Source: Candidatus Poseidoniaceae archaeon (GTDB lineage: Archaea > Thermoplasmatota > Poseidoniia > Poseidoniales > Poseidoniaceae). From it: DNA of 64,000 nt. Position 1 is the stretch's first letter; every line of letters begins with the position of its first letter. Of the stretch, positions 1-30,870 are shown piece by piece. Location of the stretch: NCBI GenBank assembly GCA_943789275.1, contig CALSTM010000003.1, positions 596,053-660,052 of the forward strand. The letters run 5' to 3'. The notes under the pieces were generated by a model. That model did not search any database, was not told where the DNA came from, and saw only the letters and a list, made by a program, of their open reading frames with translations. The translations under genes and the position numbers were made by a program.

Positions 1-591
1 GGCAAGGACGGTAACGCTCTCACCGGTGTTAAAGGCGTAACTCGTGTCTTTGGTACAGCTACCGTGGTAATGGTCAAGGACGATCTCCAAGTCATCAAGG
101 GTATTGGCCCATTCATTGAAGAAAAGCTCAATGCGCTCGGAATCTACACTTACCTACAAGTCTCGAAGATGACCTCAAAACTTGAAACAGACGTCAACGA
201 GGCCATCGAGTTCTTCCCTGGCCGTGTCAAGCGAGACCAATGGGTCAACCAGGCGAAGATTTTGCTCGGTGAGGACGTGAAACTCGATGAGAAGGCACTC
301 AAGCAAGCCGAAGACCTCGAACGAATCTCCAAGAAGGCTGAGTCAATTGACTTCGCTACGCTTGGTGTTGCAAGCGCTTCCGAGAAGGACTCGCTGCAGA
401 CAATCAAAGGGATTGGTCCGTTTATTGAAGAGAAGTTGAATGCGCTTGGTATTTACACCTTCGAACAAGTTGGAAACATGACGCCTGATATTGAAGAACA
501 GGTCAACAAGGCCATCGAGTTCTTCCCAGGCCGTGTCAAGCGAGACCAATGGGCGAAGCAGGCTCGTGAATTGCACAGTAACAAAAAGTGA
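1..591 (+). CDS. C-terminal fragment of a protein ending in two tandem HhH-like domains (IKGIGPFIEEKLNALGIYT...FFPGRVKRDQW). The gene starts upstream of the window and is probably the cytoplasmic tail of a third giant-adhesin paralog.
   Basis: Frame 1 is open from base 1 with no stop before the listed GTG at 64. There are two ~58-aa internal repeats. The segment is about 85% identical at protein level to the C-terminal ~95 aa of the giant ORF that ends at 13092. Confidence 0.6.
   Translation, partial: GKDGNALTGVKGVTRVFGTATVVMVKDDLQVIKGIGPFIEEKLNALGIYTYLQVSKMTSKLETDVNEAIEFFPGRVKRDQWVNQAKILLGEDVKLDEKALKQAEDLERISKKAESIDFATLGVASASEKDSLQTIKGIGPFIEEKLNALGIYTFEQVGNMTPDIEEQVNKAIEFFPGRVKRDQWAKQARELHSNKK
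88..570 (+). repeat. Tandem duplication of a ~58-aa HhH-like domain, with copies at about 88-260 and about 397-570.
   Basis: The protein repeat IKGIGPFIEEKLNALGIYT(Y/F)xQVxxMTxxxExxVNxAIEFFPGRVKRDQW occurs twice within the ORF. Confidence 0.7.
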
Positions 592-860: not shown

Positions 861-1550
861 GTGATATGTATGGGTGGATTAAAAGCGAGCGGTGATATGC
901 GGTATTTTCAGATACGTATTCTGCATGAGCAAGCCCAGCATTTACCAGGGAATATCCTTACGAAGTTCTTCAGCAAAGTGGAAATGGTTACTGGAACTGG
1001 GGTTGTGGACTCCATCCCAACATGTATTCTCAGGGTAGAGCATGATGGCGTTGACATTAGGAAACTCAAAGATCAACTCAAGGGGAGTTTAATCATCGAT
1101 AAAATCCTCCAAGAAGGGGATGATTATGCCTACTTGAAAGCGAAAACTCCTGGACCGATTCAACTCATTATTGGGGCTGAAGAGGAAGCATGGATTATGC
1201 CACCATCGTATCTCTCCAGAGAAAGTGGTTTCTTTATGACCATACACGGCACGCCGAAAGGGCTGAAGAGAATCAAAGACAAATTAGAGGCATTGATTCC
1301 TGAAAAAATGGATATGCGAATTTCAAAACTGATTATCGGCGATTGGATGTCTGCTCCAAAACTGCCAAATAAGCGTTATTTAGCTATTAAAACTGCAGTT
1401 GATATGGGTTATTACAGCACTCCTCGAAGGTGCAATCAAAGCGATATTGCAGAAGTTTTGGGTGTTAAACAAGGAACCGTTGCAGAACATTTACACTTCG
1501 CTGAAAGCATAATCATCAATTCTTGGTCCGAGCAAACATCGAGTTCATAG
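861..1550 (+). CDS. Bat-type (bacterio-opsin-activator-like) HTH_10 DNA-binding transcription regulator.
   Basis: The C-terminal motif LPNKRYLAIKTAVDMGYYSTPRRCNQSDIAEVLGVKQGTVAEHLHFAESII matches the HTH_10 signature (LTxRQRExLxxAxxxGYFDxPRxxxxxELAxxLGISxSTxxxHLRxAE). The listed start is GTG, and an ATG lies 9 nt downstream. Confidence 0.6.
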   Translation: MICMGGLKASGDMRYFQIRILHEQAQHLPGNILTKFFSKVEMVTGTGVVDSIPTCILRVEHDGVDIRKLKDQLKGSLIIDKILQEGDDYAYLKAKTPGPIQLIIGAEEEAWIMPPSYLSRESGFFMTIHGTPKGLKRIKDKLEALIPEKMDMRISKLIIGDWMSAPKLPNKRYLAIKTAVDMGYYSTPRRCNQSDIAEVLGVKQGTVAEHLHFAESIIINSWSEQTSSS

Positions 1551-2156
1551 CCCTCGGATTGAGATAATCGTTGCCAATATGAAAAGTAAACTTCCTAAAA
1601 CAGTAAATGCTTTTTTGAGGAACTTCGGCTCGTCTGTTTTCGATTTTATCTTCTCGCCAAGATTCGACCAAACCAACATGGCGAGAATCCCGCCGCTTGT
1701 TGTAATGCTGGTGATGGTCAAGATGCCAACTACACCTCCGCCGAAATCATCCAAAAATTTCGTCATCAACATGAACACCATGGCCCATTCCTTGCCATTT
1801 ACATATTGCATCAAGACGCCGGTTTTGAATCCTAATTTAGGGACCACTTCAGGAAAATTTTGTATTTTTTCCGAACGTCCAAGATACAAAATACCGAAGG
1901 CGATTAAAAACATGAATAACGAACCAATGATGTCCATTACGGTGCGGACTGTTCCGTCTTCATCAAAAGAATCAACAGCCATACCGCAGATGAAATGTAT
2001 GGAACTGAAGCCCAAAGCCATTCCAGCAATCAGCGGTAAATTACTTTTTTTTCCATGCACAACTGCATGAACTGTACAGGTAATGTTGTTCGGTCCAGGC
2101 GTAATCAATCCGGCGAGAAGTAATGCCAGTAAGTATGCTAACGAATCCCACGGCAT
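1545..2156 (-). CDS. LysE/RhtB-family amino-acid exporter.
   Basis: A ~200-aa polytopic membrane protein with the LysE-type motif AGLITPGPNN near the N-terminus. The internal ATG at 2156 gives the typical family length, whereas the ORF-track start at 2375 adds a non-hydrophobic 73-aa extension. Confidence 0.7.
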   Translation of the reverse strand: MPWDSLAYLLALLLAGLITPGPNNITCTVHAVVHGKKSNLPLIAGMALGFSSIHFICGMAVDSFDEDGTVRTVMDIIGSLFMFLIAFGILYLGRSEKIQNFPEVVPKLGFKTGVLMQYVNGKEWAMVFMLMTKFLDDFGGGVVGILTITSITTSGGILAMLVWSNLGEKIKSKTDEPKFLKKAFTVLGSLLFILATIISIRGL

Positions 2157-2399
2157 GCTGATGGCAATGAAATACACGGTATAGTTATTTTGTTGTGTTG
2201 CCGATTTAATGATTGGTCTGTTCGTTTTTCGGTTTCTTTGAGATTGACTAAACCGTCGTAGATTCAGCTCTTCTTGAACGGGGTTGAAGAGCCACTTGTG
2301 CGAAATTATAGGGTCAACTATGATAGTCAGTTCGTCGTTGGTTGGCGCATGAATGATGCCGATGGTATAGGTCACAGCCGTGTATTTGGACTAAAATCC

Positions 2400-2870
2400 A
2401 TGAAATCACTCCTTCTTGCCGTGTTAATGGTCTCCATGTCCCTTTCTGTGGGCCTTGTGGAACTGAACAAAGCCCCTTGGCTTGTTGAAGACGGTGAAAG
2501 CGAACTTGAAGAGTTAAACAATCCCATGCACACAACCGCACCTTCGATTTCCTATTCCTCAAGCACACTCGCTCTTTCCAACAACACCGCTATGACGCCA
2601 GTGACAGCGACGAATTCAGGTGGTACGGTTGGAGTTCCGGTGGCAATAGAACTCAGTACCATCGATGAATGGCTGTCTTTAGCCCTTGATTCTGATGGAT
2701 ACAGGCATGTTTCCGCTGCCGACACCACCAGTAGTGATCTCATGTATGCGACCGACACCAGTGGGGCTTGGGTCAACATAACCGTTGATGCTCCAGGACA
2801 GGTCGGGGAATACAACTCAATCGCTGTTGATTCTGAAGACGTCGTGCATATTGCCTACTTCAGCCTATAA
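2400..2870 (+). CDS. N-terminal signal-peptide-bearing segment of giant surface protein 1. It is separated from the body by an apparent +1 frameshift at about 2865-2870.
   Basis: MKSLLLAVLMVSMSLSVGLVELN is an N-terminal signal-like hydrophobic segment. The segment ends with the repeat ...IAVDSEDVVHIAYFSL followed by a stop. The same repeat unit (..K..DLKYATC..) continues in frame +1 from about 2866. The upstream ORF-track start (2274) is TTG and lacks a signal peptide. Confidence 0.5.
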   Translation: MKSLLLAVLMVSMSLSVGLVELNKAPWLVEDGESELEELNNPMHTTAPSISYSSSTLALSNNTAMTPVTATNSGGTVGVPVAIELSTIDEWLSLALDSDGYRHVSAADTTSSDLMYATDTSGAWVNITVDAPGQVGEYNSIAVDSEDVVHIAYFSL

Positions 2871-5800
2871 GGATGATACGAACGCACTTACTCAAGACCT
2901 CAAGTACGCTACGTGCGCATCATCATGCGCATCAGCATCTTCATGGTCAAACATCACCCTTGACGCCACTGGTTTTGTAGGCGAGAGAACCTCCATCGCA
3001 GTTGATTCAAATGATGGAGTGCATATTTCCTACACCGATAATACCAACAATGCACTGAAGTATACCATGTGCTCCTCATCTTGTGGTACAGCATCTTCAT
3101 GGTCGAATGTTTCTGTTGACGATATAGGAACCGGTGATACTAAACCAACTGATATCGCGATTGATTCAAACGATGCAGTACACATTGCCTACCATTGGCA
3201 AGGAATCAGTAATCTCAACATACGATATGCCACGTGTACTACCTCGTGTGCATCGGCATCCTCATGGACAAACACATCAGGTATTAGCCTCAGCAACATA
3301 CACGATGTGGCACTCGCAATTGATTCAAACGACGCACTGCACATTGCTGGCTATGATTATGACAATAAGGATATCATTTACCTCGCATGTACCTCTTCAT
3401 GTACTTCTACCTCTTCATGGTCAAATATTAGCGCTGTTACCACTGGCGAAGTTGGTGCACGATTATCGATTGCAGTTGATTCTACGAATAACCCACACAT
3501 ATCCTATCAGGCTGGTGCGTGGGCCGTACATGTTGGTCTGCCCCTTGGATACGCCACTTGCACTTCATCGTGTCTAACTGCCTCAAGCTTTTGGACTCAC
3601 GGTACTGTTCATAGCGGCTCCGCCGTTTACACCTATGGTACATCAATTGCAGTCAATCATAACAACGATAGCGTACATATCGTCCATGGCAATTTGTTTT
3701 CCAAATTTTACTACCTCGGCTCAGACACTGCTCCATATACCGTAAGTCCCGACCTTCCAAGTGGTTTGAGTTTGGATTGGAGCAGCGGAAAAATTTCTGG
3801 GACACCGAGAGAACTCTCCACCTCCACGATCTACACCATTACCGCAAGAAATGCACATGGTTCGGATACCGCAACACTGACCATTTCGGTCAACGCACCA
3901 CCTTCGCTGTCCTACGATTTGGGTACAGGAAACAGCACTTCAGTCTATTCCAACAAACAGGTTGCTGCAGGATACCAACACACCTGCGCCATTCTTGACA
4001 ATGGTTCTGTGATGTGCTGGGGAGAGAATGGCCACGGACAGTTAGGCAATGGTGGAACAGGCGACGAACACATACCCGTTTGGGTTGATCTTGGCACGGA
4101 TAGGACCGCCGTTGCGATCACTGCTGGATACAGACACACCTGCGCCATTCTTGACAACGGTTCAGTTTCCTGTTGGGGACAGGGAATTTTTGGGCAATTA
4201 GGTAATGGAGGAACATCACAACAAACCTCACCAACGCTCACCAGCAGCCTTGGAACCGGCCGTACGGCCGTAGCGATCACTGCTGGATACAGTCACACCT
4301 GCGTCATTCTTGACAACGGTTCAGTTTCCTGTTGGGGAATCGGAAATAAAGGACACTTGGGTAACGGAGGTACATCACAACAAAACTCACCAACGCTCAC
4401 CAGCAGCCTTGGTACCGGCCGTACGGCCGTAGCGATTTCTGCTGGACAATATCACTCCTGCGCCATTCTTGACAGCGGTTCAGTTTCCTGTTGGGGGTAT
4501 GGAATTGAGGGACAATTGGGTAACGGAGGTACATCACAACAAAACTCACCAACACTCACCAGCAGCCTTGGAACCGGTCGTACGGCCGTAGCGATTTCTG
4601 CTGGAGGCATCCACACCTGTGCCATACTTGACAACGGTTCAGTCTCATGTTGGGGGGAGGGAAGTAAAGGACGATTGGGTAACGGAGGTACATCACAACA
4701 AAACTCACCAACGCTCACCAACAGCCTTGGAACCGGTCGTACGGCCGTAGCGATTTCTGGTGGAGCCAAACACACCTGCGCCATTCTTGACAGCGGTTCA
4801 GTCTCATGTTGGGGAGATGGAGCCATTGGCATACTGGGTGACGGGGGGACATCAGATCAACACTCACCAACGCTCACCAGCAGCCTTGGAACTGGCCGAA
4901 CGGCAGTTGCGCTTGAGAATGGACACGCCCACACCTGTGCCATTCTTGACGACGCTTCCATGAAGTGTTGGGGAAATGACAACAACAAGCAGTTAGGCAA
5001 TGGAGCCACAGGCAGCACCGGCGACCCACCCGTTTTGGTATCAGGCAGCCATACGTGGGACTCCACGATGATTTCAGGTTCATCAAGTACAGTTTACCTT
5101 GTACAGAATGCGCTTATGAGTTCACTTTCTCCAACGTTAGACGCTGGCTTCGGTGCACCCACTTCATGCAACCAAACAGGGCTACCTTCTGGCCTTTTAC
5201 TTAGCACCACATGCGTGCTCTCAGGAACACCGACAACGTTGGGCAGTACAACGCTGACAATTACCCCCTCGAATGCAGAAGGTAATGGTTCTGCAGCCAT
5301 TTTTATCGTCAATGTGAATGCTTCAGGTGGTTCAATCACCATCAACACAACCTCCACCGAAGGTGGCGTAGGCAGTGCCATCTCAGACATCACCATGTCG
5401 TATACACACACCGCCAGCATTCCAAATTGGGTCTCAGGTGTGACCAACAGCACAATTAATCCAGCCCCCTCAATTCCAGCCGGCGGGGGTTCAAAACTTT
5501 CAATCGATTCTGGTCTAAACGGAGACATCGCAGCTGTGTATTCAGTGGAGCGAACCGGCGCGACCTCAGCCAATCTCTCCTTGCTCTACAAGTGGAACGG
5601 GGCATGGACAGAGAGTACCATTGACAGCAGTGTCGATACGGAGGTTCCATCGGTTGCTATCGACCGACAGGGAGCACTTCACATCGGGTATGTCGATAAG
5701 GACAATGCCAAGTTGAAGTACGCCACCAATGCATCTGGGTCTTGGGTCGTTGAAACGTTGGGTGATGCAGCGACTCACCAATTTGCACAAACGGCAATTT

Positions 5801-8800
5801 CAGTGCATCCGGTCACAAATGCAATTCATATCATGGCCGTGAACGGATCGACCATCCCAACCGCAGGATTGAATCATCACACAAACGAAACAGGTACCTG
5901 GCTCTACTCAACCATTTCTGACCCATCAGAGGAAGAGGGATTCGGGGTTAATTTCGATATTGACTCAGATGGTAACCTGCATGTTGTTTTCCGAAGAGAA
6001 GCCAACAGTGTCACGACCCCTCACTATGACCACTTGATAATGGCCAGTCGAATAAACGGTGTTTGGCAAAACCAGACCATTGCAATCAATCTGATTAACG
6101 GTGCGTATGGACATCACTTTGACATGGCCATTGATTCACAAGATCAAATACACGTAACATATCAAGGTAACCTCAATCAAGGAAAATGGATTTGGCATGG
6201 CGTATTATCAAGTGTTAACCCAAGCAGTAGCTGGGTTTTAACTCAATTATCTACCTCAGGATTTTACCCAGCTTTGGCCGTCGATTCAAACGACAATGTG
6301 CACCTTTCTTATCACGGTGGTGCGGGCTGTCCAAGGATCAGTGGTACCAAACATACACCTCTGGAACGTGGAGTTCGACGAATCGAAACAAGCGCCACCG
6401 CCGGCAACATTCATGGGGGTTACTTCAATGAAATGACCACAGATTCCAATGATGATGTCTTTATATTTGCTTATGGGCAAGTGGTTTCCACTTGCAAAAG
6501 TTGTGACATTCGAATAACCAGAATTCAAGGTTTAGGACCAAGTCTTGCGACGAATCCGATTTTCGAGGTATCACCACCACTCCCAGACGGACTGAACATG
6601 AACTGGCACAACGGTACCATTTCTGGAACACCGACTGAAACCCACGCGAACACTACACACACCGTCACAGTGACTGCCTTTGGCGCAACCACAACTGAAA
6701 CATTCACACTTATGGTCATTGAAGCAGCCGATATTTCCTACGCAGGTTCACCGTTTACGTTCACCAAGAACACCGAAGTCGTTGGAGAAACACCAACCAA
6801 CGCTGGTGGAGCAGTCATCACATGGGCAATTCACCCGCCAGCATCTTCGCTACCAAACGGTCTCTTGTTTGGCCCATCCAACGGAACCATCTACGGTACA
6901 CCGACCACTGTGGTCTCTTCCGCCGTTACGTTCACCGTTTGGGCGAACAATTCGGCTGACAGCAATTCGACAACCATTTCGATCACCGTTCAAGACGAAG
7001 CTCCTGACATTTCGTATGCAGGTTCACCGTTTACGTTCACCAAGAACACGGAAGTTGTTGGAGAAACACCAACCAACGCTGGTGGTGCGGTAAGCACATG
7101 GGCAATTCACCCGCCAGCATCTTCGCTACCAAACGGTCTCTTGTTTGGCACATCCAACGGAACCATCTACGGAACACCGACCACTGTGGTCTCTTCAGCC
7201 GTTACGTTCACGGTTTGGGCGAACAATTCTGCCGATGATATTTCGACAACCATTTCGATTACTGTTCAAGATGAAGATGCTGACATTTCGTACGCAGGTT
7301 CACCGTTCACATTCACCAAGAACAGTCTTGTGAGCGGTGCAACGCCAACTAACGTTGGTGGCGCACCAGATGCATGGGCTATTGATCCAGAAATCTCTAC
7401 CACGATTCCAGGACTCTCGTTCAACACCGCAACGGGTGCTATCACCGGTACGCCAACAGGAGTACATTCGGCCACTATGTTCACCGTTTGGGCCAACAAT
7501 TCCGCAGGTGATATTTCGACAACCATTTCGATCACCGTTCAAGATGAAGATGCTGACATTTCGTACGCAGGTTCACCGTTCACGTTCACCAAGAACAGTC
7601 TTGTGAGCGGTGCAACGCCAACTAACGTTGGTGGCGCACCAGATGCATGGGCTATTGATCCAGAAATCTCTACCACGATTCCAGGACTCTCGTTCAACAC
7701 CGCAACGGGTGCTATCACCGGTACGCCAACAGGAGTACATTCGGCCACTATGTTCACCGTTTGGGCCAACAATTCCGCAGGTGATATTTCGACAACCATT
7801 TCGATCACCGTTCAAGATGAAGATGCTGACATTTCGTACGCAGGTTCACCGTTCACATTCACCAAGAACAGTCTTGTGAGCGGTGCAACGCCAACTAACG
7901 TTGGTGGCGCACCAGATGCATGGGCTATTGATCCAGAAATCTCTACCACGATTCCAGGACTCTCGTTCAACACCGCAACGGGTGCTATCACCGGTACGCC
8001 AACAGGAGTACATTCGGCCACTATGTTCACCGTTTGGGCCAACAATTCCGCAGGTGATATTTCGACAACCATTTCGATCACCGTTCAAGATGAAGATGCT
8101 GACATTTCGTACGCAGGTTCACCGTTCACATTCACCAAGAACAGTCTTGTGAGCGGTGCAACGCCAACTAACGTTGGTGGCGCACCAGATGCATGGGCTA
8201 TTGATCCAGAAATCTCTACCACGATTCCAGGACTCTCGTTCAACACTGCAACGGGTGCTATCACCGGTACGCCAACAGGAGTACATTCGGCCACTATGTT
8301 CACCGTTTGGGCCAACAATTCCGCAGGTGATATTTCGACAACCATTTCGATCACCGTTCAAGATGAAGATGCTGACATTTCGTACGCAGGTTCACCGTTC
8401 ACATTCACCAAGAACAGTCTTGTGAGCGGTGCAACGCCAACTAACGTTGGTGGCGCACCAGATGCATGGGCTATTGATCCAGAAATCTCTACCACGATTC
8501 CAGGACTCTCGTTCAACACCGCAACGGGTGCTATCACCGGTACGCCAACAGGAGTACATTCGGCCACTATGTTCACCGTTTGGGCCAACAATTCCGCAGG
8601 TGATATTTCGACAACCATTTCGATCACTGTGAACGACATTGCACCAGTTTTCACATATTCATCCCTCGAAGTGACATTAACCAATAATTCGGCGGTATCG
8701 CTCTTGCCAATCAGCACGGGCGGGGCGGTCACATCGTGGGAGTACGTAGGAACTGAACCACTCGGTTTGAACTTCGAAGGCGGAAATGGAACCATTTGGG

Positions 8801-11800
8801 GCACACCAACCGTTGTTCAATCGAAAACTCAATACTTGATTTGGGGGAACAATTCAGGTGGACAGCTTTTGGTTTACATGAACATCACCATTTCTGATGT
8901 GCCTGTTTCCTTGAGTTACACCTCTGACAATTACAACCTCACGCGTGCTGTCACAATGACAACGCCAATCAGTCCAGTTTACACTGGTATTGTTGATGCG
9001 TGGGGCATTGAACCTTCACCTACATTGGCGGGTCTCTCTTGGGATTCATCCACAGGTGTGATTTCAGGTACGCCAAACATCAACATGACCCGAACAGAAT
9101 ACACCGTTTGGGCAAACAATACCGGTGGTAACGTGTCTCATAAGTTCAACATCACCATCAACGAACCGATTGTGACCTTGGTCTACACTCCTGCGAGCGA
9201 AACCTTTGTTCGAGGTACGACAATCACCAACTGGCTCCCAACGGTGACCGGTGGAAACGTCGAAACTTGGGGCATTGAACCTTCAATTACGGGAACTGGT
9301 CTTTCGTTTGTCAACGGAGTGATTTCGGGTACACCGACCATCAACATGACCCAAGCCGATTACATCGTATGGGCCAACACGACCGGTGGCGAGACCAACT
9401 TTACCATCAGCATTACCATCAATGAACCGATTGTGACCTTGGTCTACACTCCTGCGAGCGAAACCTTTGTTCGAGGTACGACAATCACCAACTGGCTCCC
9501 AACGGTGACCGGTGGAAACGTCGAAACTTGGGGCATTGAACCTTCAATTACGGGAACTGGTCTTTCGTTTGTCAACGGAGTGATTTCGGGTACACCGACC
9601 ATCAACATGACCCAAGCCGATTACATCGTATGGGCCAACACAACCGGTGGCGAGACCAACTTTACCATCACCATCACCATCAATGAACCGATTGTGACCT
9701 TGGTCTACACTCCTGCGAGCGAAACCTTTGTTCGAGGTACGACAATCACCAACTGGCTCCCAACGGTGACCGGTGGAAACGTCGAAACTTGGGGCATTGA
9801 ACCTTCAATTACGGGAACTGGTCTTTCGTTTGTCAACGGAGTGATTTCGGGTACACCGACCATCAACATGACCCAAGCCGATTACATCGTATGGGCCAAC
9901 ACAACCGGTGGCGAGACCAACTTTACCATCACCATCACCATCAACGAACCTGGAGTCATCCTTGAGTACAATCCAGAAAATGTAATCGTCACAATTGGTG
10001 ACCCAATGACTGCGTTGACCCCAATTGTCAGCAACGGGAGCGTTGAGATATGGAGCATTTATCCCGAACTTGATAATGGATTGAACTTTGCAAACGGAAT
10101 CATCTCAGGAACGCCAACAAGCATTCAATCAAAACAAACCTACAAGATTTGGGCTAACAACACAGGCGGCAATACATATCACGATGTCAACATCACAATC
10201 CTTGACATCGTTCCTGAAATTTCCTACAGTCTCGTAAGCATTGACCTTACTAATGATACGACAAGCAGTGAGTTGCCTCTCTCCCCGAGTAACCTCGGCG
10301 GTCCAGTGGTGTCATGGTCGATTACGCCAGACCTCAGCCTTGGCTTGTCGTTTGACCCTGCAACCGGCGTCATCAGTGGAACACCCACTGAAGTCACAGC
10401 ACTTCGAGTCTACACCGTTACTGCAACAAATACAGGTGGAACGAGCACGACAGAGATTGAAATCACCGTTCTTGACCAAGTTCCGATGATTGCATACGTG
10501 CCTTCGGATGAAGTTCTGCTCTTGAACGAGAGTGTCCTGAACATGGTACCTGAATCCACGGGTGGAGCAATCACGGGCTGGTCAATCACACCTGAGCCAT
10601 CTGCTGGTTTGTTCTTTGACGCATCGACCGGTGTTTTCAGCGGTACGCCTACGGAGACAATGATTCGAACCCTGTACGAGATTACAGCAACAAATGATGT
10701 GGGAAGCATGACCGTTTCGGTTAACATCACCGTTGAAGATTTGAATTACAACCTCTCGCTTGGTCCGATTTATTTGCTCATTAATGAGGAAATGTTGAGT
10801 TTAGAACCGACATCAACCCTCTCTGATGCTGTCTATGAAGTCAGCCCAGATCTGCCTGATGGTCTCTTCCTTGGAGAAAGCAATGGAACCATTTGGGGCA
10901 CACCAACGGTTGGAATGCCTCTGACAAATTTCACCATCTATGCCAACAGCAGTTTGTTCAATGATGTGCTTGAAATCCAAATCGGAGTCCTAGAAGATTC
11001 AGATTCGGATGGAATGCCGAACCAACTGCCGCTTGGTTACAATCCACTCGGCGGTCTTACCGAAGACTTGGACGATGACGGTGACGGCTTCACTGATGCC
11101 GAGGAAAGCGAATGCGTTTCAGACGCATTGGATGCAGATTCAGCGCCAACCGACCTCGATGGCGATTCCATCTGCGACGCATTGGATGATGACGTCGACG
11201 GCGATGGCTTGTTGAATGATGTTGAAACAAACACCTCAACCTACGTGGATGAGAACGATACTGGAACCGACTCAATGAACGCTGACACCGACGGTGACGG
11301 CGTTTGCGATGGACCTCAAGTGCCAGCTAACGGCGGCTGCACCGCAGGACCAGATGTGTTCCCACTCGACCCTGCAGGCTCCGTTGACAGCGATGGTGAC
11401 GGCATGCCGGACACTTTGAACGGTGAATCCACCAGTTCACCACCTCTGGTCGAAGACCTCGATGACGACAACGACGCTTGGTCTGACGAGATGGAAGCAG
11501 CATGTGGAACGGACAGCGTCGATTCGAACAGTGTTCCTAGCGATGAAGACGCCGACGAAATCTGTGACAGCCTTGACACGAACCTGGACCTGCCGTTCAA
11601 CCTCACATACCCAACCGATACATTGACTGTAACATTAGGTGAAGAGATTTCAATCCTGCTTCCAAACCTCACCGGTTTGGGTGAAGTGTCTTCTTGGGAG
11701 ATTGAAGGTGAATTGCCCGAGGGATTGACCTTTGGCTGGAGTCCAGCAAGGGATGCTGCTCTTGACGGAAGTATACGTGGTACACCAACTGCAGTAATGT

Positions 11801-13092
11801 CTGCGACCGTCTTTACCATCTGGGCGAACAACTCTGCATACAGTCAATCGTTTGAACTTACGATTACTGTTCTCGAAGACCTCGTTCTTCCAAATGATGA
11901 TGGTGATGCTGGTGTTGATGAGGATGATGAGGACACCCCGCTGCTCCTCACTTGGGGTTACATCTGTTGCCCGTTGCTTCTTCTGCTTCTGCTGTCCGTC
12001 TTTATGTTGTTCTTCATCGGTGAAAAACAAGTCGTTATCGATGCTGAACCTTCAAACACTTTTGTAAAACCAGTTAGCAAAAGAGGCACAGGTACTCAAG
12101 AAGATCCTTTCGTATTGAAATCAATTGGAGGTCTCAAACCCGGTGGAAAAGCGAACAGCCATGAACGAATTACATTCGTCGGCTTGACAGTAGAGAGTAT
12201 TGAAATAATCGATTTGGAGCAAAAGAACAATGGAAATAAATTTTCCATGTTCATGCTCAAGCCAGCCTCCAGTGAAACGGGTGTTCGAATGCTTGGTATC
12301 GACGAGAATGTAGACACCACCATTGGCATGAGATTCGATGACAGTAAAGAAGAATCTTCCGTTAAGGGCGATGAATATTCAGCGTTGTTGAAAATTGGCA
12401 AATCCAGTGTTTACTTTTCTTGGACGGTGACGGTTAAACCGAGCAAGGTCAACAAAGTGAAGCCTAGAGAACCAATAGTGACGATTAAATCGACACAATC
12501 CATGTCCAAATCGGGTTCAATGAGTTCTTCTGAACCAAAGTCGTCCGTGGAGGAGAAGGCTGCAAAGGATGCTGAAGCTAAGGCTGCAAAGGATGCCAAA
12601 GCGCAAGCAGATGCGGATACTAAGGCGGCAAAGGAAGCCAAAGCGCAAGCAGATGCGGATGCTAAGGCGGCAAAGGAAGCCAAAGCGCAAGCAGATGCGG
12701 ATGCTAAGGCGGCGAAGGAACTCAAAGCACAAGCGGATTCAGAAGCCAAAGCAGTTAAAGAAGCCAGAGCCAAAGTCGACGAAGATGCTGCAGCTGTTGC
12801 CAAAAAGGCAGAAGAATTGGAACGTATCGCAAAGCGGGCTAAAAGTATTGATTTCGCTACGCTCGGTGTGGCTAACATCGGTGAAAAAGATGACCTGCAA
12901 GCCATCAAGGGCGTTGGTCCGTTCATCGGAGAAAAGTTGAATGCACTCGGCATCTTTACGTTTGAGCAAGTCGGAAACATGACGCCTGAAATTGAAGAAC
13001 AGGTCAACAAAGCGATTGAATTTTTCCCTGGCCGCGTTAAGCGAGACCAGTGGGCGAAGCAAGCAAGGCAACTTCATCATGATAAAAAGTGA
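2785..13092 (+). CDS. Body of giant secreted, membrane-anchored adhesin-like protein 1 (3435-aa ORF, ~3,600 aa with the N-terminal segment). It contains beta-propeller-like repeats, RCC1-like repeats, tandem Ig-like (He_PIG or cadherin-like) domains, TSP3-like Ca-binding repeats, a single TM helix, and a cytoplasmic tail with AK-rich repeats and an HhH-like domain.
   Basis: A single 10.3-kb ORF. The RCC1 signature HTCAILDNGSVSCWGxGxxGQLGNGG occurs seven times. LPxGLxFxxxxGxIxGTPT Ig-like units number more than 20. The acidic repeats include DxDxDGxxD (DTDGDGVCD). The hydrophobic helix is LLLTWGYICCPLLLLLLLSVFMLFFIG. The C-terminus is IKGVGPFIGEKLNALGIFTFEQV...FFPGRVKRDQW. Confidence 0.85.
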   Translation: MMLQDRSGNTTQSLLILKTSCILPTSAYKDDTNALTQDLKYATCASSCASASSWSNITLDATGFVGERTSIAVDSNDGVHISYTDNTNNALKYTMCSSSCGTASSWSNVSVDDIGTGDTKPTDIAIDSNDAVHIAYHWQGISNLNIRYATCTTSCASASSWTNTSGISLSNIHDVALAIDSNDALHIAGYDYDNKDIIYLACTSSCTSTSSWSNISAVTTGEVGARLSIAVDSTNNPHISYQAGAWAVHVGLPLGYATCTSSCLTASSFWTHGTVHSGSAVYTYGTSIAVNHNNDSVHIVHGNLFSKFYYLGSDTAPYTVSPDLPSGLSLDWSSGKISGTPRELSTSTIYTITARNAHGSDTATLTISVNAPPSLSYDLGTGNSTSVYSNKQVAAGYQHTCAILDNGSVMCWGENGHGQLGNGGTGDEHIPVWVDLGTDRTAVAITAGYRHTCAILDNGSVSCWGQGIFGQLGNGGTSQQTSPTLTSSLGTGRTAVAITAGYSHTCVILDNGSVSCWGIGNKGHLGNGGTSQQNSPTLTSSLGTGRTAVAISAGQYHSCAILDSGSVSCWGYGIEGQLGNGGTSQQNSPTLTSSLGTGRTAVAISAGGIHTCAILDNGSVSCWGEGSKGRLGNGGTSQQNSPTLTNSLGTGRTAVAISGGAKHTCAILDSGSVSCWGDGAIGILGDGGTSDQHSPTLTSSLGTGRTAVALENGHAHTCAILDDASMKCWGNDNNKQLGNGATGSTGDPPVLVSGSHTWDSTMISGSSSTVYLVQNALMSSLSPTLDAGFGAPTSCNQTGLPSGLLLSTTCVLSGTPTTLGSTTLTITPSNAEGNGSAAIFIVNVNASGGSITINTTSTEGGVGSAISDITMSYTHTASIPNWVSGVTNSTINPAPSIPAGGGSKLSIDSGLNGDIAAVYSVERTGATSANLSLLYKWNGAWTESTIDSSVDTEVPSVAIDRQGALHIGYVDKDNAKLKYATNASGSWVVETLGDAATHQFAQTAISVHPVTNAIHIMAVNGSTIPTAGLNHHTNETGTWLYSTISDPSEEEGFGVNFDIDSDGNLHVVFRREANSVTTPHYDHLIMASRINGVWQNQTIAINLINGAYGHHFDMAIDSQDQIHVTYQGNLNQGKWIWHGVLSSVNPSSSWVLTQLSTSGFYPALAVDSNDNVHLSYHGGAGCPRISGTKHTPLERGVRRIETSATAGNIHGGYFNEMTTDSNDDVFIFAYGQVVSTCKSCDIRITRIQGLGPSLATNPIFEVSPPLPDGLNMNWHNGTISGTPTETHANTTHTVTVTAFGATTTETFTLMVIEAADISYAGSPFTFTKNTEVVGETPTNAGGAVITWAIHPPASSLPNGLLFGPSNGTIYGTPTTVVSSAVTFTVWANNSADSNSTTISITVQDEAPDISYAGSPFTFTKNTEVVGETPTNAGGAVSTWAIHPPASSLPNGLLFGTSNGTIYGTPTTVVSSAVTFTVWANNSADDISTTISITVQDEDADISYAGSPFTFTKNSLVSGATPTNVGGAPDAWAIDPEISTTIPGLSFNTATGAITGTPTGVHSATMFTVWANNSAGDISTTISITVQDEDADISYAGSPFTFTKNSLVSGATPTNVGGAPDAWAIDPEISTTIPGLSFNTATGAITGTPTGVHSATMFTVWANNSAGDISTTISITVQDEDADISYAGSPFTFTKNSLVSGATPTNVGGAPDAWAIDPEISTTIPGLSFNTATGAITGTPTGVHSATMFTVWANNSAGDISTTISITVQDEDADISYAGSPFTFTKNSLVSGATPTNVGGAPDAWAIDPEISTTIPGLSFNTATGAITGTPTGVHSATMFTVWANNSAGDISTTISITVQDEDADISYAGSPFTFTKNSLVSGATPTNVGGAPDAWAIDPEISTTIPGLSFNTATGAITGTPTGVHSATMFTVWANNSAGDISTTISITVNDIAPVFTYSSLEVTLTNNSAVSLLPISTGGAVTSWEYVGTEPLGLNFEGGNGTIWGTPTVVQSKTQYLIWGNNSGGQLLVYMNITISDVPVSLSYTSDNYNLTRAVTMTTPISPVYTGIVDAWGIEPSPTLAGLSWDSSTGVISGTPNINMTRTEYTVWANNTGGNVSHKFNITINEPIVTLVYTPASETFVRGTTITNWLPTVTGGNVETWGIEPSITGTGLSFVNGVISGTPTINMTQADYIVWANTTGGETNFTISITINEPIVTLVYTPASETFVRGTTITNWLPTVTGGNVETWGIEPSITGTGLSFVNGVISGTPTINMTQADYIVWANTTGGETNFTITITINEPIVTLVYTPASETFVRGTTITNWLPTVTGGNVETWGIEPSITGTGLSFVNGVISGTPTINMTQADYIVWANTTGGETNFTITITINEPGVILEYNPENVIVTIGDPMTALTPIVSNGSVEIWSIYPELDNGLNFANGIISGTPTSIQSKQTYKIWANNTGGNTYHDVNITILDIVPEISYSLVSIDLTNDTTSSELPLSPSNLGGPVVSWSITPDLSLGLSFDPATGVISGTPTEVTALRVYTVTATNTGGTSTTEIEITVLDQVPMIAYVPSDEVLLLNESVLNMVPESTGGAITGWSITPEPSAGLFFDASTGVFSGTPTETMIRTLYEITATNDVGSMTVSVNITVEDLNYNLSLGPIYLLINEEMLSLEPTSTLSDAVYEVSPDLPDGLFLGESNGTIWGTPTVGMPLTNFTIYANSSLFNDVLEIQIGVLEDSDSDGMPNQLPLGYNPLGGLTEDLDDDGDGFTDAEESECVSDALDADSAPTDLDGDSICDALDDDVDGDGLLNDVETNTSTYVDENDTGTDSMNADTDGDGVCDGPQVPANGGCTAGPDVFPLDPAGSVDSDGDGMPDTLNGESTSSPPLVEDLDDDNDAWSDEMEAACGTDSVDSNSVPSDEDADEICDSLDTNLDLPFNLTYPTDTLTVTLGEEISILLPNLTGLGEVSSWEIEGELPEGLTFGWSPARDAALDGSIRGTPTAVMSATVFTIWANNSAYSQSFELTITVLEDLVLPNDDGDAGVDEDDEDTPLLLTWGYICCPLLLLLLLSVFMLFFIGEKQVVIDAEPSNTFVKPVSKRGTGTQEDPFVLKSIGGLKPGGKANSHERITFVGLTVESIEIIDLEQKNNGNKFSMFMLKPASSETGVRMLGIDENVDTTIGMRFDDSKEESSVKGDEYSALLKIGKSSVYFSWTVTVKPSKVNKVKPREPIVTIKSTQSMSKSGSMSSSEPKSSVEEKAAKDAEAKAAKDAKAQADADTKAAKEAKAQADADAKAAKEAKAQADADAKAAKELKAQADSEAKAVKEARAKVDEDAAAVAKKAEELERIAKRAKSIDFATLGVANIGEKDDLQAIKGVGPFIGEKLNALGIFTFEQVGNMTPEIEEQVNKAIEFFPGRVKRDQWAKQARQLHHDKK
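3960..5010 (+). repeat. Seven RCC1-like (beta-propeller blade) repeats of about 150 bp each, encoded within giant gene 1.
   Basis: Recurring xHTCAILDxGSVxCWGxxxxGQLGNGGTSQQNSPTLTSSLGTGRTAVAIxAG. Several copies share long identical nucleotide runs (for example acggttcagtttcctgttgggg). Confidence 0.75.
6724..8635 (+). repeat. Seven tandem 273-bp (91-aa) Ig-like domain repeats. The last five (7271-8635) are nearly identical at nucleotide level.
   Basis: The protein unit DADISYAGSPFTFTKNSLVSGATPTNVGGAPDAWAIDPEISTTIPGLSFNTATGAITGTPTGVHSATMFTVWANNSAGDISTTISITVQDE occurs five times. Spurious antisense and alternate-frame ORFs recur with an exact 273-nt period (7266, 7539, 7812, 8085, 8358) and identical translations. 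Confidence 0.9.
9163..9945 (+). repeat. Three near-identical tandem repeats of about 261 bp (87 aa), each encoding an Ig-like domain.
   Basis: EPIVTLVYTPASETFVRGTTITNWLPTVTGGNVETWGIEPSITGTGLSFVNGVISGTPTINMTQADYIVWANTTGGETNFTI(S/T)ITIN occurs three times. The nucleotide copies are visibly identical. Confidence 0.85.
12590..12720 (+). repeat. About three tandem copies of a 60-bp repeat encoding the Ala/Lys-rich unit AKEAKAQADADAKAAK in the cytoplasmic tail of giant protein 1.
   Basis: The string gcaaaggaagccaaagcgcaagcagatgcggatgctaaggcggca repeats three times with a 60-nt period. Confidence 0.8.
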
Positions 13093-13501: not shown

Positions 13502-16500
13502 AATCGTACTGTACAGCGGGCGGTATCACGAAAACGTCACTGTTGATGGCAAGGACAACCTTCTGATTCGTGCAGCCGATGGAGCCCGTGTTGTCTTTGA
13601 CGGTACTCGAAGCATTACTGAAGATTTAGGTGGTGTTTGGGGTGCAGCCGACAGCGATGGAATCCAAGAAGTCACTTTGCCTGTTGATGGCTGGCAACTG
13701 TTCCTTGCCTACGAAGAACAAGTTCCTGCTCGATGGCCAAATGCCCAATTCTCTGATGAAACGGTCTTCAATCGTTCGTACTGGGCTGAAGGCACATTGA
13801 CCGGTTCAAACAATGCCTACACGCAAGGCTGGTTGACAGATGCTGGTCCTGAAACAGGTGTTCACACAGGCCTCAATGAAACAATTAACGCCACAGGCCT
13901 CGACCCTGAAGGGGCTATTGCGGTGATGAACCTCGGTTCGTTCCGCTCCAACAGCCGTGTCATCACCGATTGGAATTCGGCCAACGGGACGTTTGCATAC
14001 GATGGCACTGGCGTAGGTTGGAAAACCAAGCATCACGCTTACTTCCTTGAGGGCAAGCGAGAACTCATCGATGTCGATGGTGAATGGTGGTTCAACAATG
14101 CAATCAACCGCCTGCATTACAAAACGCCAAGCGGGCAGAATGCAAACAATTTGGATTTGCGTGTCAAGGTACAACCGTTTGCGATGAGCGTTGAAAACTC
14201 CGACGGCGTGACCATCCAAGGCCTCGATTTCTTTGGAACGACGGTCAACTTCAACGAATGCGATGGATGCAGTTTCACCAATTCGACCCTCGAATATCCA
14301 AGCACCTCAAAGCGTGGATTGGGTATTGCCGGCGAATCAGAAGATGACCGTTGGATGACACGTTTCTATCGTTCAACCAACTCGTTTGTCGACAACATTT
14401 CCATCACCAACACCGACGGTGGCGCTCTTGAATTCCAAGGGTCTGCGGGTCAGTCGCACAACAACACGGTGAACAATTCCTACTTCCACGCCATCGACTG
14501 GTCAGCTGCCGACCAGAAAGGACTGATGGTCACAATTTACGAGGGAGGCCGAGACATGTACTTCACCAACAACACCGTTCACTTGACCGGGGCTTCATCC
14601 GTACTCTCCATTGGTGATGCGCCCAAGGTGTTCTACAACGAAGTCTGGGATGTTGGGCATTTGCAAACTGATGGCGCTGTTGTTCAGATCATGCAAGGTG
14701 AGGCCCCAGGTGCTGAAGTTGCTCACAACTGGATTCATGACATCATCAAGTACGGTGCCCGGTTTGATGCACCCATTGGAGAAGCGGGAGAAGGCCGGAA
14801 TGGAACCATGCATCACAATGTCATTTGGAATGTAACGGGCGGTTTGATGGTTAAGGGGGACTATCACGACGTCCACAACAACACGGTGTTCAATTCCTCA
14901 GATGGCAAAAATGACATCATTGCCCTCACCGATGGCGAGATCAACAACAAAAATTCGACGTTTCACCGCAATGCGGTGGATAAGATGGCCGACCATCGCT
15001 CAGGCTCATGGTCGCTTTATCCACTTCCCGCTGGGACGTATTGGAACAACTGGAACGGCTACGTCAACACCACGGATACGGTTTGGAATCAACTGGTTGA
15101 CCCTGCCAATTACGATTTCAGACCGAAGACCAACTCCCATCTTGACAACATGAGTGCGGGTGCATACGATGCTGGTGTGAGCAATCCGTGGACGGCCGGT
15201 ATTTCTTGGACATACACGACGCCCGATGCACCGGTCGAAGGGTGTATGCTCGATTATGCTGACAACTACGATGCAGACGCCACGCTATCAGACGGCTCGT
15301 GCTCCTTCGCATCGTATACGCCACCGGCCACGCTCGACCTCCGTCTCCATCTTGACCCAACCAACAGCAGTTCCTACAGCGGCAGCGGCACCAACGTCGC
15401 TGACCTTTCTGGGTTCAACAACTACGGAACCGTCGCCGCCGCTGGACCGACATGGGACGGCGATTTCACACGCTTCTCCTACGATGGGGCGTGCACTGGC
15501 TCGACCCCGAACCTGGTTTGCGATGAGATCGAAGTTTCTGACTCAACGAGCTTGCGCCCGGGCGGAAACGACTGGTCGGTATCAGTTTGGTTCAACGCCT
15601 CAACGCACCAACACAGCGTGATACTCGGCGCCTTCGACGACGGAGGGGCAGCAGTGGATGTTGGATGGGCCATCCGAATGAGAGCATCAGGTGGCATCTA
15701 TGCAAATGTGGGAACCACTTCCAACAATTCGGCCGCATGGACGTCAGAAGCATCCATCGATACGGACCGCTGGTATCACGTGGTCTTGGTTGCAGACCCG
15801 GGAAATACCCTCAGACTCTATGTTGATGGGCAAAACGTCGGAAGCGGTTCCTTGTCTGGAAGTGGAGCCCTGCGCAATGTAAGCAACAGCCTCTTCATCG
15901 CCTCCTACAACGGCGGTGAATATTCTCAGACCTTTGATGGACAAGTTGGTTCCGTCATGGCCTTTGCCGATGCACTCAACGCCACCACCATCAATCAAAT
16001 CTACAATGCAAGCAAGGGTGTGTACAGCAACACGACCACCCTGTCCTTCCCTCAATCTTCACCGACCTTGCTCCTCGGTCAAACATACAGTTTCCCCATG
16101 ACTGTCGCCAACGGTGAGATCACGACGTCCTATTCGCTCACGGGAACCTTGCCAAGCGGCATGAATTTCGAATCGAGCAACGGTACGATTTGGGGAACGC
16201 CAACGGCGGCTATGTCAACCACGAGCTACACCGTGACGGCCAACAACTCAGCCGGCACCTACTCGACCTCGTTCTCGTTGACATCGCAACATGCGGCACC
16301 GTACGATTTGGCCTACGCGCCAGAGAACATGACCCTTGAGAAGGGTACGGCCATGACGACCAACACGCCGAGTGTGAGCGGGGGCGCCATCACATCTTGG
16401 GAAATCAACCCCTCCGTGCCAACTGGACTTTCCTTTAGCACCTCAACCGGTGCCATCAGTGGTACGCCTTACGTGTTGCAAACAACAGCAACCACGTACA

Positions 16501-19500
16501 CGATATGGGCCAACAATTCAGGCGGAAATGCTTCAGCACAGGTCAACATCACCATCAACGATGAAGTGCCGATTATTTCCTATTCGTATGATGACATTAC
16601 CGGTACCAAGAGCGTGGCCATCAGCCCCCATTCTGGTCCAACTACGAGCGGTGGGACCATCACCTCATGGGAGATTTCACCATCACCAGGTTCTGCGTTC
16701 CACTTTAATTCCGCAAATGGCTACATCAGCGGAACTCCGGGGATTCTTCTGGCTAGAACCCAATACACCATTTGGGCCAACAATTCAGGTGGTTCGTCCG
16801 TTGCCTATGTCAACGTGACCATCAACGATGCAGCGCCGAACGCGTTGGGTTATTCTCCAGAAAATATGACACTCGAGAAGGATACAGCGATGACGCCGAA
16901 CCTTCCTTCGGTCAGTGGTGGAACCATCACGTCATGGGAAATCAGTCCTTCTCTGCCGAGCGGTCTGACATGGGGGGCCTCGGATGGGAAAATCAGTGGA
17001 ACACCCGCCGTTCTGCAAACGACGACGGTTACGTACACGATTTGGGCCAACAACTCAGGTGGTTCAGATTCCGCTCAAGTGAACATCACCATCAACGACC
17101 AACTCGCATCTGCAACCTATCCTTCAACCGTTGAAGTATCCAACGACCGAGCGATGACGACGGTCTCGCCGACCGTCACCGGTGGAGCGGTCATCTCGTG
17201 GGTCATCGTGCCTTCACTCTCCTCAGGCCTCAATTTCGGTAGTAGCAACGGAAGCATCTGGGGCACGCCAACAGGATTGTTGGAGAACGCCACCTACACC
17301 GTCTATGCGAACAACAGCGGCGGTTCAACCAGCATTACCTTCACGCTCGGGCTCAACTGGACGCTGACGCCAAGTGCCGAGGGTGCCTTCATCACCCGCA
17401 ACAGTTCCATTGCCAGCGACATCACGTGGGAATGGGATTACGATCCGCTTGAAGCTCAGAACCTTTCATTGGTGACTGGAGAATGGAACACCTGTGCCCT
17501 TGATAGCAATCAAAACGTGTTTTGTTGGGGACGAAACGGCAACGGTCAAATCGGCAACGGACAAACTGGAACGTCTGGTTGCGGTACATCAGGCCACAAG
17601 TGCAAGGACATTCCAACAGCAACGAACGATTTGGGCTCGGACGTGATCTCCCTTGCCTTTGGCCACCAGCATGCATGTGGCTTGCTTGACACTGGTGCCG
17701 TGAAGTGTTGGGGCCGAAACAATGCAGGGCAACTTGGAACCAGCGGTGGAGACAAGGATACGCCTCAAACCATCAATCTCGGGTCAGGGCGAACCGCTAC
17801 GAGCATCTACGCCGGTGGCCACTACACCTGCGCCATCCTCGATGACGCCTCCGTCAAGTGCTGGGGGGAGAATGGGAACGGTCAACTCGGTATTGGTTCA
17901 AACTCGAACGCCAACACACCGACCACCATTAACACCCTCGGGTCAGGTCGCACGGCTATTTCTTTAGCAACCGCCATGAGTGCAGTCTGTGCCCTCCTCG
18001 ATGACGGTTCAGTCAAGTGTTGGGGAGCCTCCGCAAATGGCCAGTTAGGCAATGGGGGTACCAGTTCAAATCTGAAGAGTCCACCTGCATCTGCAATTAA
18101 CCTCGGAACCGGCCGTACTGCAAAAGCCATCACAGGTGGCGAATCCCATTTCTGCGCCATCCTCGATGACGATTCCATCAAGTGTTGGGGCAATGGATTC
18201 AATGGGAAACTAGGAACCGGGACAACTTCCCACAGATCAACACCAACCTCAACCAGCGGAAGTTTCGCTACAGGTCGCTATGCGGTCGCCATTGACGCTG
18301 GCTACGATCACACCTGTGCCATTCTCGATAACGGCCAACTCACATGCTGGGGTTCTGATTCTGATGGCCAACTGGGTAACGGCGCTACCACGGGTACGAA
18401 ATCATCGATTCAATCCACAACCGTCACTCTTGGGTCGGGACGAACGGCCATTTCGCTTTCTGCAGGTGGAGAGCACACCTGTGCGCAACTGGACAATGGA
18501 CAACTCAAGTGCTGGGGGAATCGAGCAGACGGTCAAGTTGGCGACAACGGGAATTTCAACAATCCGTCCGATCGCACGAGCCCTTCCTCCGTATCCAACA
18601 ACAACCACGGCGGATATACCTATCTCAATACGGGCGTCATGCCTTCTTCCGCTGTTACTGGCGCTACCTGCGAGATCTCGCCTTCCCTCCCAACCGGCCT
18701 CAGTTTGACCGCCGGCACCTGCACCATCACCGGCACACCGACCGCTACAGCCAGCAACGCCACCTACACCATTTGGGCCAACGTTTCCGGCACATCGTAC
18801 AGCGGTCAAATCTGGCTTGAAGTCGGTTTGAATGCACCGGACATTTCCTATTCGTCTTCGACCTATACCTACACCAAGGACATAGAAATTTTCACGCTCA
18901 ACCCAACCAACGTCGGTGGCGAAGTGACAACTTGGGCCATCAACGCAACGTTGCCATCAGGCCTTACATTCGAGACCAGTAACGGTACAATTTGGGGCAC
19001 ACCGGACACGATTACGGCATCAACCACCTACACGGTATGGGCGAACAATTCCGCTGATTCAGATTCCTTCACCATCACGTTCACCGTAAACGATGCTACT
19101 CCGAATTTCTATTACGGCAGCGCAAGCGGTGGAGGCGCACACACACTTGTCCTCTATCTGGATCAGACCATGAATCCACTCACGCCGACCCAGGCATCCG
19201 GGGGTGGAGCGATCACTTCGTGCAGCAGTTCACCATCACTGCCTTCTGGGCTGTCGTTGAGTTCAACATGTGTCCTTTCAGGAACACCTGATGCAACCGC
19301 TACCGGGGCCTTCTACACCATCACAGGAACCAACACAGGCGGTAGCGATACAGCATCGTTGTACATCGAAATCCGCTCCTATGGTGGAACATTGAGCGTG
19401 ACACCAAGCAACACTGAAGGCAGCGTGAACAGTTCCATCTCAGACATCACGATGTCCTATGCGCATCAAATCAGCAACTACGGTTGGACATCTGGTGTAA

Positions 19501-23309: not shown

Positions 23310-23508
23310 TGTGGCTTACTTTGGTCAACAAACATCTTCTGGAATTTTCTCGCTCTATGCTTACAATGCTTCAAATGCGACGCTATGGATGGTTTCAGGG
23401 AGTAATGCTAATCGTGGTGTTGCTGTAACTATTGACGGTGTATTGTATGGTAGTCGTGGTCTACAGTTCTCTTCCAGGTGGCTCTACACTCTGGGCGCAC
23501 AACCCTAA
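23173..23508 (+). CDS. Short frame-shifted fragment of giant locus 2 carrying kelch-like LYAYNASNATLWMVSG repeats.
   Basis: It continues the xLWAHNxSNGTxW repeat family seen at the end of the preceding ORF and the start of the following one. Confidence 0.35.
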   Translation: MCLWQSSVTVVPTVVRHGRTTSATGHLGASQSYMMHTTAGAQVIGDVAYFGQQTSSGIFSLYAYNASNATLWMVSGSNANRGVAVTIDGVLYGSRGLQFSSRWLYTLGAQP

Positions 23509-25891: not shown

Positions 25892-25942
25892 TGACGCTCA
25901 AGACGTTCACAATTTCGGCGAGCAATAGCGGCGGTTCAGTCA

Positions 25943-27331: not shown

Positions 27332-27458
27332 GGTCCCGACAATAGCGTACTCGCCGAACGATTTGGACCATGACCAATAACACGGCAAGCAGCGACCTTC
27401 CGCTCTCGCCGACCATCACAGGTTCGGTGAAATCACGTCGTGGGCCATCAACGCCATC

Positions 27459-30521: not shown

Positions 30522-30870
30522 CACGTAGCATGTTCACGATTACCGCAACCAACACCGGTGGAACGGCAACAGCGTACATCAACATCACAATCGTTGACGA
30601 ACTTCCAACGATTGCATACTCGCCGAACGATTTGATTATGACCAACAATACTGTTTCGAGTGATCTTCCGCTTTCGCCGACCATCACCGGCTCTGGCGAG
30701 ATTGTATCGTGGGCCATCAGCCCATCAGAGCCAAGCGGTCTTTCCTTTGATACTTCGAACGGAACGCTCAGCGGAACGCCGACTGAATTGCTGACACGTA
30801 CAATGTACACCATCACAGCAACAAACACAGGTGGGACAGCAACAGCGTACATCAACATCACCGTTCTTGA
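29230..30870 (+). repeat. About six tandem 273-bp Ig-like-domain repeats at roughly 90% identity. They span the frameshift at about 30430-30520.
   Basis: VPTIAYSPNDLxMTNNTASxDLPLxPTITGSGExVSWxISPSxPSGLxFDTSNGTLSGTPTELxTRTMxTITATNTGGTATAYINITIVDE recurs six times. Confidence 0.8.

Follow-up and report, generated by a model that had tools for sequence, protein, structure and literature searches.

Among uncultured plankton, the Marine Group II archaea rank with the most abundant, and particle attachment is a role ascribed to their giant surface proteins. The present report concerns the first 591 positions of a 64-kb stretch of DNA from a Poseidoniaceae (Marine Group IIa) archaeon (the whole stretch is called the window, and all coordinates are window positions), where an open reading frame (ORF) ends in two copies of a helix-hairpin-helix (HhH) module and is almost certainly the tail of a giant transmembrane (TM) protein, here named G0. 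Relatives of the module have been described in bacteria. For the phasin PhaH of Caulobacter crescentus, the passage of a review that deals with this protein places its N-terminus on polyhydroxybutyrate (PHB) granules and its C-terminal HhH domain on DNA, which is bound non-specifically (PMC13052382), and states that PhaH distributes the granules along the nucleoid (PMC13052382, citing Salinas et al. 2023, doi 10.1111/mmi.15124). The structures of protein-O and Urf1, from reaction centre-light-harvesting 1 (RC-LH1) complexes, show no more than the N-terminal TM part, and what the C-terminal domain does is called obscure by the authors (PMC12079452, PMC13066640). Nothing relevant was found in the literature on giant proteins of Poseidoniales or on Marine Group II genomic islands with giant genes, and nothing on C-terminal HhH extensions of NuoE. 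No description of HhH-tailed giant surface proteins was found in the literature searched. The comparison suggests that the module family, known but poorly characterised, has at the cytoplasmic end of giant archaeal surface proteins a place that appears not to have been described before.

On the + strand, frame 1 of the window runs uninterrupted from base 1 to the TGA at 589-591 (196 codons). An earlier note, made from the letters alone, had taken this open frame to be probably the cytoplasmic end of a third giant paralog encoded upstream, with a ~58-residue HhH-like module present twice and the last ~95 amino acids (aa) about 85% identical to the end of another giant gene of the window, giant gene 1. 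The modules are indeed two copies of ~65 aa, with 47 of 65 residues identical (72%; 73% at the DNA level), and the likeness of the tails was measured at 78 of 95 residues (82%), with 86% over the last 70 aa. Recent gene conversion between G0 and giant gene 1 was considered as the source of this likeness and dismissed, because the DNA identity of the 95-aa tail region is only 74% against 82% for the protein. The repeat unit comprises 103 aa (helical linker, 'ELERI..IDF..LG' leader and module) and the ORF stops 3 aa past module 2. The 'EDLERISKKAESIDFATLGVA' leader recurs ahead of the giant gene 1 module and ahead of the upstream beta domain of G0. When each module was used as tblastn query, three copies were found in the whole window (nt 82-267, 391-576 and 12892-13077; E 1e-27 to 7e-37) and no credible fourth.

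The sequence upstream of base 1 was read from near-identical contigs, found through the exact HTH_10 protein encoded at 870-1550 (10 ENA contigs); a GTDB genome scan gave no exact match to positions 1-60. Over window 1-591, three of these contigs (L084, L089 and L090) show 100% identity; L084 and L090 keep 99.7-99.8% identity over the next ~8 kb. In all three the G0 frame is unbroken through all 9.7 kb of upstream sequence, that is 3,239 codons up to the locus edge. In these contigs a multi-kilobase ORF with a TM helix therefore precedes the equivalent of base 1, with He_PIG repeats outside and a 638-aa tail, as expected for the third giant paralog of the earlier note. The called G0 products measure 6,833 aa (L084, L089 and L092), 5,392 aa (L086) and 5,289 aa (L090). 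Moreover, ~45 of 80 GTDB loci carry at least 650 in-frame upstream codons; their ORFs range from 654 aa to over 3,590 aa, and many remain open to the locus edge. Nearly all of these ~45 have exactly one strong TM helix, 440-790 aa from the C-terminus, all have two modules (rarely three), and they follow the same tail plan as G0.

The anatomy of G0 was read from L084. At least 25 He_PIG Ig-like matches (in stretches of 11, 12 and 2; E down to 1e-120) were found in the 2,580 aa upstream. Behind them come Asp-rich TSP3-like repeats and one TM helix (MYALCCLPLLLLLLLVFLL), then the residues RRKK and the 638-aa tail. The tail starts with a ~150-aa juxtamembrane domain (GSGTREDPF...VYFKWAVEIA) and continues with Lys-rich and acidic stretches, a spacer of ~170 aa made of AEADAKAAKEAKAK-type repeats rich in Lys, Ala and Glu (K/A/E), the leader ELKRVKSRADTIDFKTLG and a beta domain of ~65 aa, of which the final 25 residues correspond to aa 1-25 of the window ORF. 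After the beta domain come module 1, linker and leader, and module 2. The beta and juxtamembrane domains had no Pfam or PHROGs match. The K/A/E segment matches TolA profiles weakly (E 0.011) and, judging by its composition, probably forms a long helical spacer like TolA domain II.

Signal peptides begin the intact orthologues L069 and L027, and the N-terminus of the present strain lies outside the sequence seen. The 3,059-aa ectodomain of giant gene 1 contains 66 N-x-S/T sites and has an isoelectric point (pI) of 4.05, in contrast to one site and a pI of 8.6 in the tail. Because of the signal peptides, the RRKK that follows the TM helix and this difference in pI and N-x-S/T sites between ectodomain and tail, the topology is predicted, by sequence rules, to be type I with the tail in the cytoplasm. 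G0 thus combines many He_PIG domains, a signal peptide (in orthologues), one C-proximal TM helix and positive residues inside, as in giant He_PIG-repeat type I adhesins.

The module very probably belongs to the COG3743/H3TH family. The window ORF matched the NCBIfam profiles of long-form NuoE (E 1e-36), S2 (4e-27), L21 (2e-24) and PhaH (2.8e-17; positions 154-231 of 234), in each case through the C-terminal extension only. Since all these scores are far under the whole-protein cut-offs, the protein is not NuoE, S2, L21 or PhaH itself. Among PDB sequences it matched the C-termini of protein-O from the RC-LH1 complex of D. shibae and Urf1/protein-3h of Rdv. sulfidophilum (E 1e-11; 8yy9_O, 9wqv_a). 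Pfam Cdd1 (PF11731) was found with 31 bits (cut-off 25.5), of which only positions 6-39 of 86, the HhH hairpin, were matched, and several Pfam HhH families fell just under cut-off. The consensus of 535 module instances gives the family signature DDL..I.GIGP..E..LN..GI..F.Q ... FPGR..R[DE].W..QA, and both window modules and that of giant gene 1 carry it as DDL..I.G[IV]GP..E..LN..G...F.Q ... F.GR[IV].R[DE].W..QA.

An exhaustive search with one module returned 8,454 cluster representatives at E<=1e-3. In 133 of the best 147, no more than 25 aa separate the last module from the C-terminus. Of the 147, 92 have a TM helix ahead of the modules and one has a TM helix behind them. Profile match, signature and tandem placement at the extreme C-terminus are thus all found in the window ORF. 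The predicted structure of the module is a four- to five-helix bundle (AF2 with a 50-sequence alignment; pLDDT ~80-90 in the modules, mean of 73 for the whole model). Foldseek with this model gave nothing significant, nor was any experimental structure found for the module itself.

The HhH module region is the most conserved part of the protein. Across Poseidoniales, including Marine Group III, the last 170 aa are 76-93% identical, compared with 30-54% for the juxtamembrane domain and 27-69% for the ectodomain; these adhesins have a structured and extremely conserved intracellular end in families that otherwise diverge widely. The strong conservation of the tail argues that the modules face a highly conserved partner. 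The mechanism that we propose would have the dozens of He_PIG domains and the Asp-rich TSP3-like repeats outside the cell, behind a signal peptide, one TM helix in the membrane and a tail of ~640 aa inside, with the long K/A/E spacer carrying the modules from the membrane into the cytoplasm. There they would bind a large conserved partner, most likely chromosomal DNA without sequence specificity, as reported for the homologue PhaH, and the tail would link the adhesin to the nucleoid, serving for mechanical anchorage or for positioning. Taken together, a giant TM adhesin tail with COG3743 modules and a tether is a reasonably probable explanation of the locus. The tether on its own, argued by analogy with PhaH, is put forward tentatively, as a possibility that falls short of being likely.

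Several other explanations were weighed. The ORF could be the end of a standalone cytoplasmic HhH protein of ~165-340 aa, and public gene calls agree with this at first sight: with the 196 aa as query, 1,563 proteins matched, of which the best 120 are from Poseidoniaceae (e.g. Candidatus Poseidonia alphae), are all 165-343 aa long and come in some cases from megabase-length contigs. The earlier note held that a short gene of this kind would speak against a giant paralog. However, many of these entries are labelled 'partial', and their N-termini begin within the K/A/E-rich repeat or are frame-shifted versions of it. Scaffold L002 has a gap of Ns within this repeat. Downstream of the gap lies the 'short gene', and upstream of it an ORF of 961 aa that runs open to the end of the contig and contains Ig-like repeats, Asp-rich repeats and a TM helix. 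In addition, 28 GTDB contigs (including L006, L012, L021 and L028) break off upstream of the tail at a distance of no more than ~1.3 kb; 20 of the 28 begin inside the repeat. Because the starts fall in the repeat or at contig ends, because of the L002 gap and because window-identical contigs hold a single ORF of at least 3,239 codons, with which the ~45 GTDB loci agree, the lengths of the short homologues are artefacts. They were dismissed as genuine small genes, and a short protein ending here is extremely improbable. An extracellular position of the modules, as DNA receptor, would be comparable to ComEA, a membrane-anchored HhH DNA receptor to which a weak profile match was obtained (E 0.07). 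Nevertheless the modules are separated by the single TM helix from an acidic Ig-repeat ectodomain that is led by a signal peptide and rich in glycosylation sites, and positive residues follow the helix; the positive-inside rule and the ectodomain features place the HhH modules on the inner face and make the ComEA-like arrangement very improbable. The name 'flap endonuclease-1-like 5' DNA nuclease', given by JGI and COG3743 to many homologues, together with the H3TH/HhH likeness to DNA polymerase and repair proteins, could point to a nuclease similar to FEN-1. This name is explained by the module falling in the COG3743 'H3TH' family, and the match is limited to a small helical motif of the DNA-binding type. 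When the window ORF and the 3,239 upstream residues of L084 were searched with Pfam, no domain of the PIN-like, XPG or 5'-3' exonuclease type was found, which counts against a nuclease. From its sequence, the tail is not expected to have nuclease activity, and the FEN-1-like alternative is given practically no weight.

The main competitor of the DNA tether is a role of the modules in docking to protein, comparable to that of the acidic repeats (AR) of NusA or of SAM domains. Their partner would then be a conserved protein or complex of the cytoplasm (cytoskeleton, ribosome or membrane complex), or they would oligomerise the tails. In favour of DNA, an activity has been reported for one homologue only, PhaH, and according to the corresponding passage of the review (PMC13052382) it is DNA binding by this domain; in every module, the basic cluster (K, GRVKR, K) is invariant and the G-h-G hairpin canonical. 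We regard docking as possible but rather unlikely. A number of observations nevertheless weigh against the explanation preferred here. Among the structural neighbours, protein-binding NusA AR repeats and SAM domains reach similar Z and come just as near in fold. The charge of the modules is neutral (pI 6.4-6.9), although neutrality by itself is compatible with DNA binding as well as with its absence; the net charge of their distant relatives averages -1.3, and the G-I-G-P hairpin is followed by Phe-Ile-Glu-Glu where Urf1/protein-O of Rhodobacterales has Lys. The DNA binding of PhaH is taken from a passage of one review (PMC13052382), and the function of other hosts of the module (Urf1/protein-O, NuoE) is called obscure (PMC12079452). 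As for the giant gene, the window itself starts at base 1, without upstream DNA of its own contig, and the supporting contigs contain overlapping split gene calls, with G0 called at 5,289-6,833 aa; because these contigs appear, from such calls, to carry indel errors, the exact length of G0 is uncertain. Near-identical strains moreover have a second, unrelated upstream allele with its junction at nt 75, whose product is likewise a giant TM protein and has its tail organised in the same way. With these points counted, we still prefer the giant adhesin with a conserved intracellular HhH tail and, more tentatively, its tether to DNA.

Short-read assemblies break in the K/A/E-rich repeat, also at 2880-2990 of scaffold L002, and many 'partial' or mis-started HhH proteins of 165-343 aa in public databases are the result. 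Elsewhere the module reaches far higher copy numbers. Bacterial proteins of 1,769-3,115 aa from Verrucomicrobiota and other groups (P0121, P0122, P0123 and P0147) consist of 12-26 tandem copies, the maximum of 26 being found, for example, in a 3,115-aa protein of Verrucomicrobiota. Another protein (P0220) combines five TM helices and PAS/GGDEF domains with four C-terminal modules. Tails of the Poseidoniales type (78-80% identity) were also found in contigs labelled 'Flavobacteriaceae bacterium TMED48' (L045, NHDB01000028.1) and 'Rhodobiaceae bacterium' (L057, CALDQY010000310.1), and these taxon labels are probably due to binning contamination.

Alignment of the three giant tails bears on the view of the earlier note that the region is a cluster of giant paralogs sharing an intracellular module. 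What G0, giant gene 1 and giant gene 2 have in common is the TM helix and the ~150-aa juxtamembrane domain, of pattern G.GT.EDPF ... SVYF.W.V (window 12019-12435 and 32639-33118, and the L084 tail), which is without Pfam match. The K/A/E spacer, leader and terminal HhH module are found in G0 and giant gene 1 only, so that the idea of a cluster stands for all three through the juxtamembrane domain and the idea of a shared HhH module for two of them. Compared with giant gene 1, G0 has the beta domain and the second module in addition. Giant gene 2 ends 160 aa past its TM helix.

Both of the other giant genes show irregularities of their own. The main ORF of giant gene 1 spans 2785-13092, and a signal peptide (MKSLLLAVLMVSMSLSVG) was seen at ~nt 2400 in a different frame (2298-2870); related contigs call the gene from the equivalent of position 2298. 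The true start of giant gene 1 is likely at this signal peptide, parted from the main ORF by a frameshift somewhere in 2785-2870. Giant gene 2 (13677-33121) is divided into at least six consecutive + strand ORFs with ends that look frame-shifted (e.g. '...TATRHGFGDNHVLG'), which reflects either assembly indel errors or a decaying gene. The last of them (30431-33121) contains the TM helix and the juxtamembrane domain and has no HhH tail.

Five contigs of the set (L083, L085, L087, L088 and L091) match the window and L084 only from nt 75 on (99.2% to L084; locus 9206). Upstream of this point only patches of ~68% identity to L084 were found in the contigs with the second allele, whose protein is a giant TM protein with the spacer and two modules and without the beta domain. 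Because near-identical strains (99.2-99.8% identity from nt 75 on) diverge exactly upstream of nt 75, the start of module 1 is the edge of a variable island of the replacement type. The copy number of the module also varies within the population: L086, alignable to L084 over ~9.4 kb, has the allele of the window plus one additional 309-bp unit that provides a third module, and three modules were likewise found in L042 and L063. It may be that Poseidoniales couple giant adhesins to the chromosome through a TolA-like spacer and PhaH-type modules, as a surface-to-nucleoid tether whose module also marks the junction at which adhesin alleles are swapped; as a whole this picture, drawn by analogy, is speculative and unlikely.

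The features are collected in the table below. The order of HhH-tailed giant gene, HTH_10 gene and LysE gene is kept in many Poseidoniaceae loci, where the two smaller genes lie between two giant genes.

Table. Coordinates and properties of the G0 tail, of the corresponding parts of the other two giant genes and of the neighbouring genes.
Feature	Position	Strand	Remarks
3' end of giant surface-protein gene G0	1-591	+	196 codons and stop; frame open from base 1; 100% identity to L084, L089, L090
Small beta domain, last 25 aa (WTGKDGNALTGVKGVTRVFG...)	1-75	+	just before module 1; variable side of allele-replacement junction at ~nt 75
HhH module 1, aa 26-90	76-270	+	G-I-G hairpin aa 34-36; GRVKRDQW motif aa 74-81
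Helical linker and 'EDLERISKKAESIDFATLGVA' leader separating the modules	271-384	+	helix aa 97-115 in predicted model
HhH module 2, aa 129-193	385-579	+	90% identity to giant gene 1 module
Single TM helix of giant gene 1 (ICCPLLLLLLLSVFMLFFI)	11962-12018	+	
Juxtamembrane cytoplasmic domain of giant gene 1	12019-12435	+	common to G0 and giant gene 2; three-tail alignment; no Pfam match
K/A/E/D-rich spacer of giant gene 1	12550-12807	+	42% Ala, 22% Lys; TolA-domain-II-like by composition; equivalent G0 spacer weakly matches TolA profiles
Lone HhH module closing giant gene 1	12889-13089	+	
TM helix and juxtamembrane tail of giant gene 2	32582-33121	+	ends without spacer or HhH module
HTH_10 transcription regulator gene	870-1550	+	conserved downstream neighbour; Pfam HTH_10 E 7e-13; same neighbour in many Poseidoniaceae loci
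LysE-type translocator gene	1545-2375	-	conserved neighbour; Pfam LysE; synteny

Hundreds of public proteins annotated as short HhH or FEN-1-like nucleases are, on this evidence, the cut-off ends of giant genes. Besides a nucleoid tether, the relation to PhaH points to a possible general role for the widespread and uncharacterised COG3743 module. If the tether is real, it could anchor adhesins of the 100-nm scale against being pulled out, or it could position or partition them, and it would be a prokaryotic link between surface and nucleoid that is functionally reminiscent of eukaryotic membrane-chromatin links.

Among known systems, the best profile matches are the C-terminal extensions of long NuoE (PRK12373), S2 (PRK12311) and L21 (PRK12278), which carry the same signature as G0, although these hosts are soluble subunits of complex I or of the ribosome. 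The (HhH)2/SAM-like bundles of NusA (AR1/AR2), the RAD51/RadA N-terminal domain and mitoribosomal mL85 share only 11-21% identity with the module. In TolA, in analogy to the G0 tail, an anchor is followed by a spacer rich in Ala, Lys and Glu and by a binding domain at the end, but TolA crosses the periplasm whereas the tail of G0 is predicted to be cytoplasmic, and the likeness is one of composition and not evidence of homology. The Urf1, protein-O and protein-3h proteins of Rhodobacterales RC-LH1 complexes have, like G0, a membrane anchor, a long flexible linker and a C-terminal cytoplasmic module (PMC12079452, PMC13066640); unlike G0 they are bacterial, 229-239 aa long, with an N-terminal TM hairpin and no ectodomain. 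PhaH (NCBIfam NF045508) has a homologous C-terminal module that is separate from the N-terminal part binding the cargo. Nevertheless it is a soluble granule protein of 234 aa with one module, whereas in G0 the 'cargo' would be a giant TM adhesin and two or three modules on a long spacer would, by analogy, provide the DNA binding.
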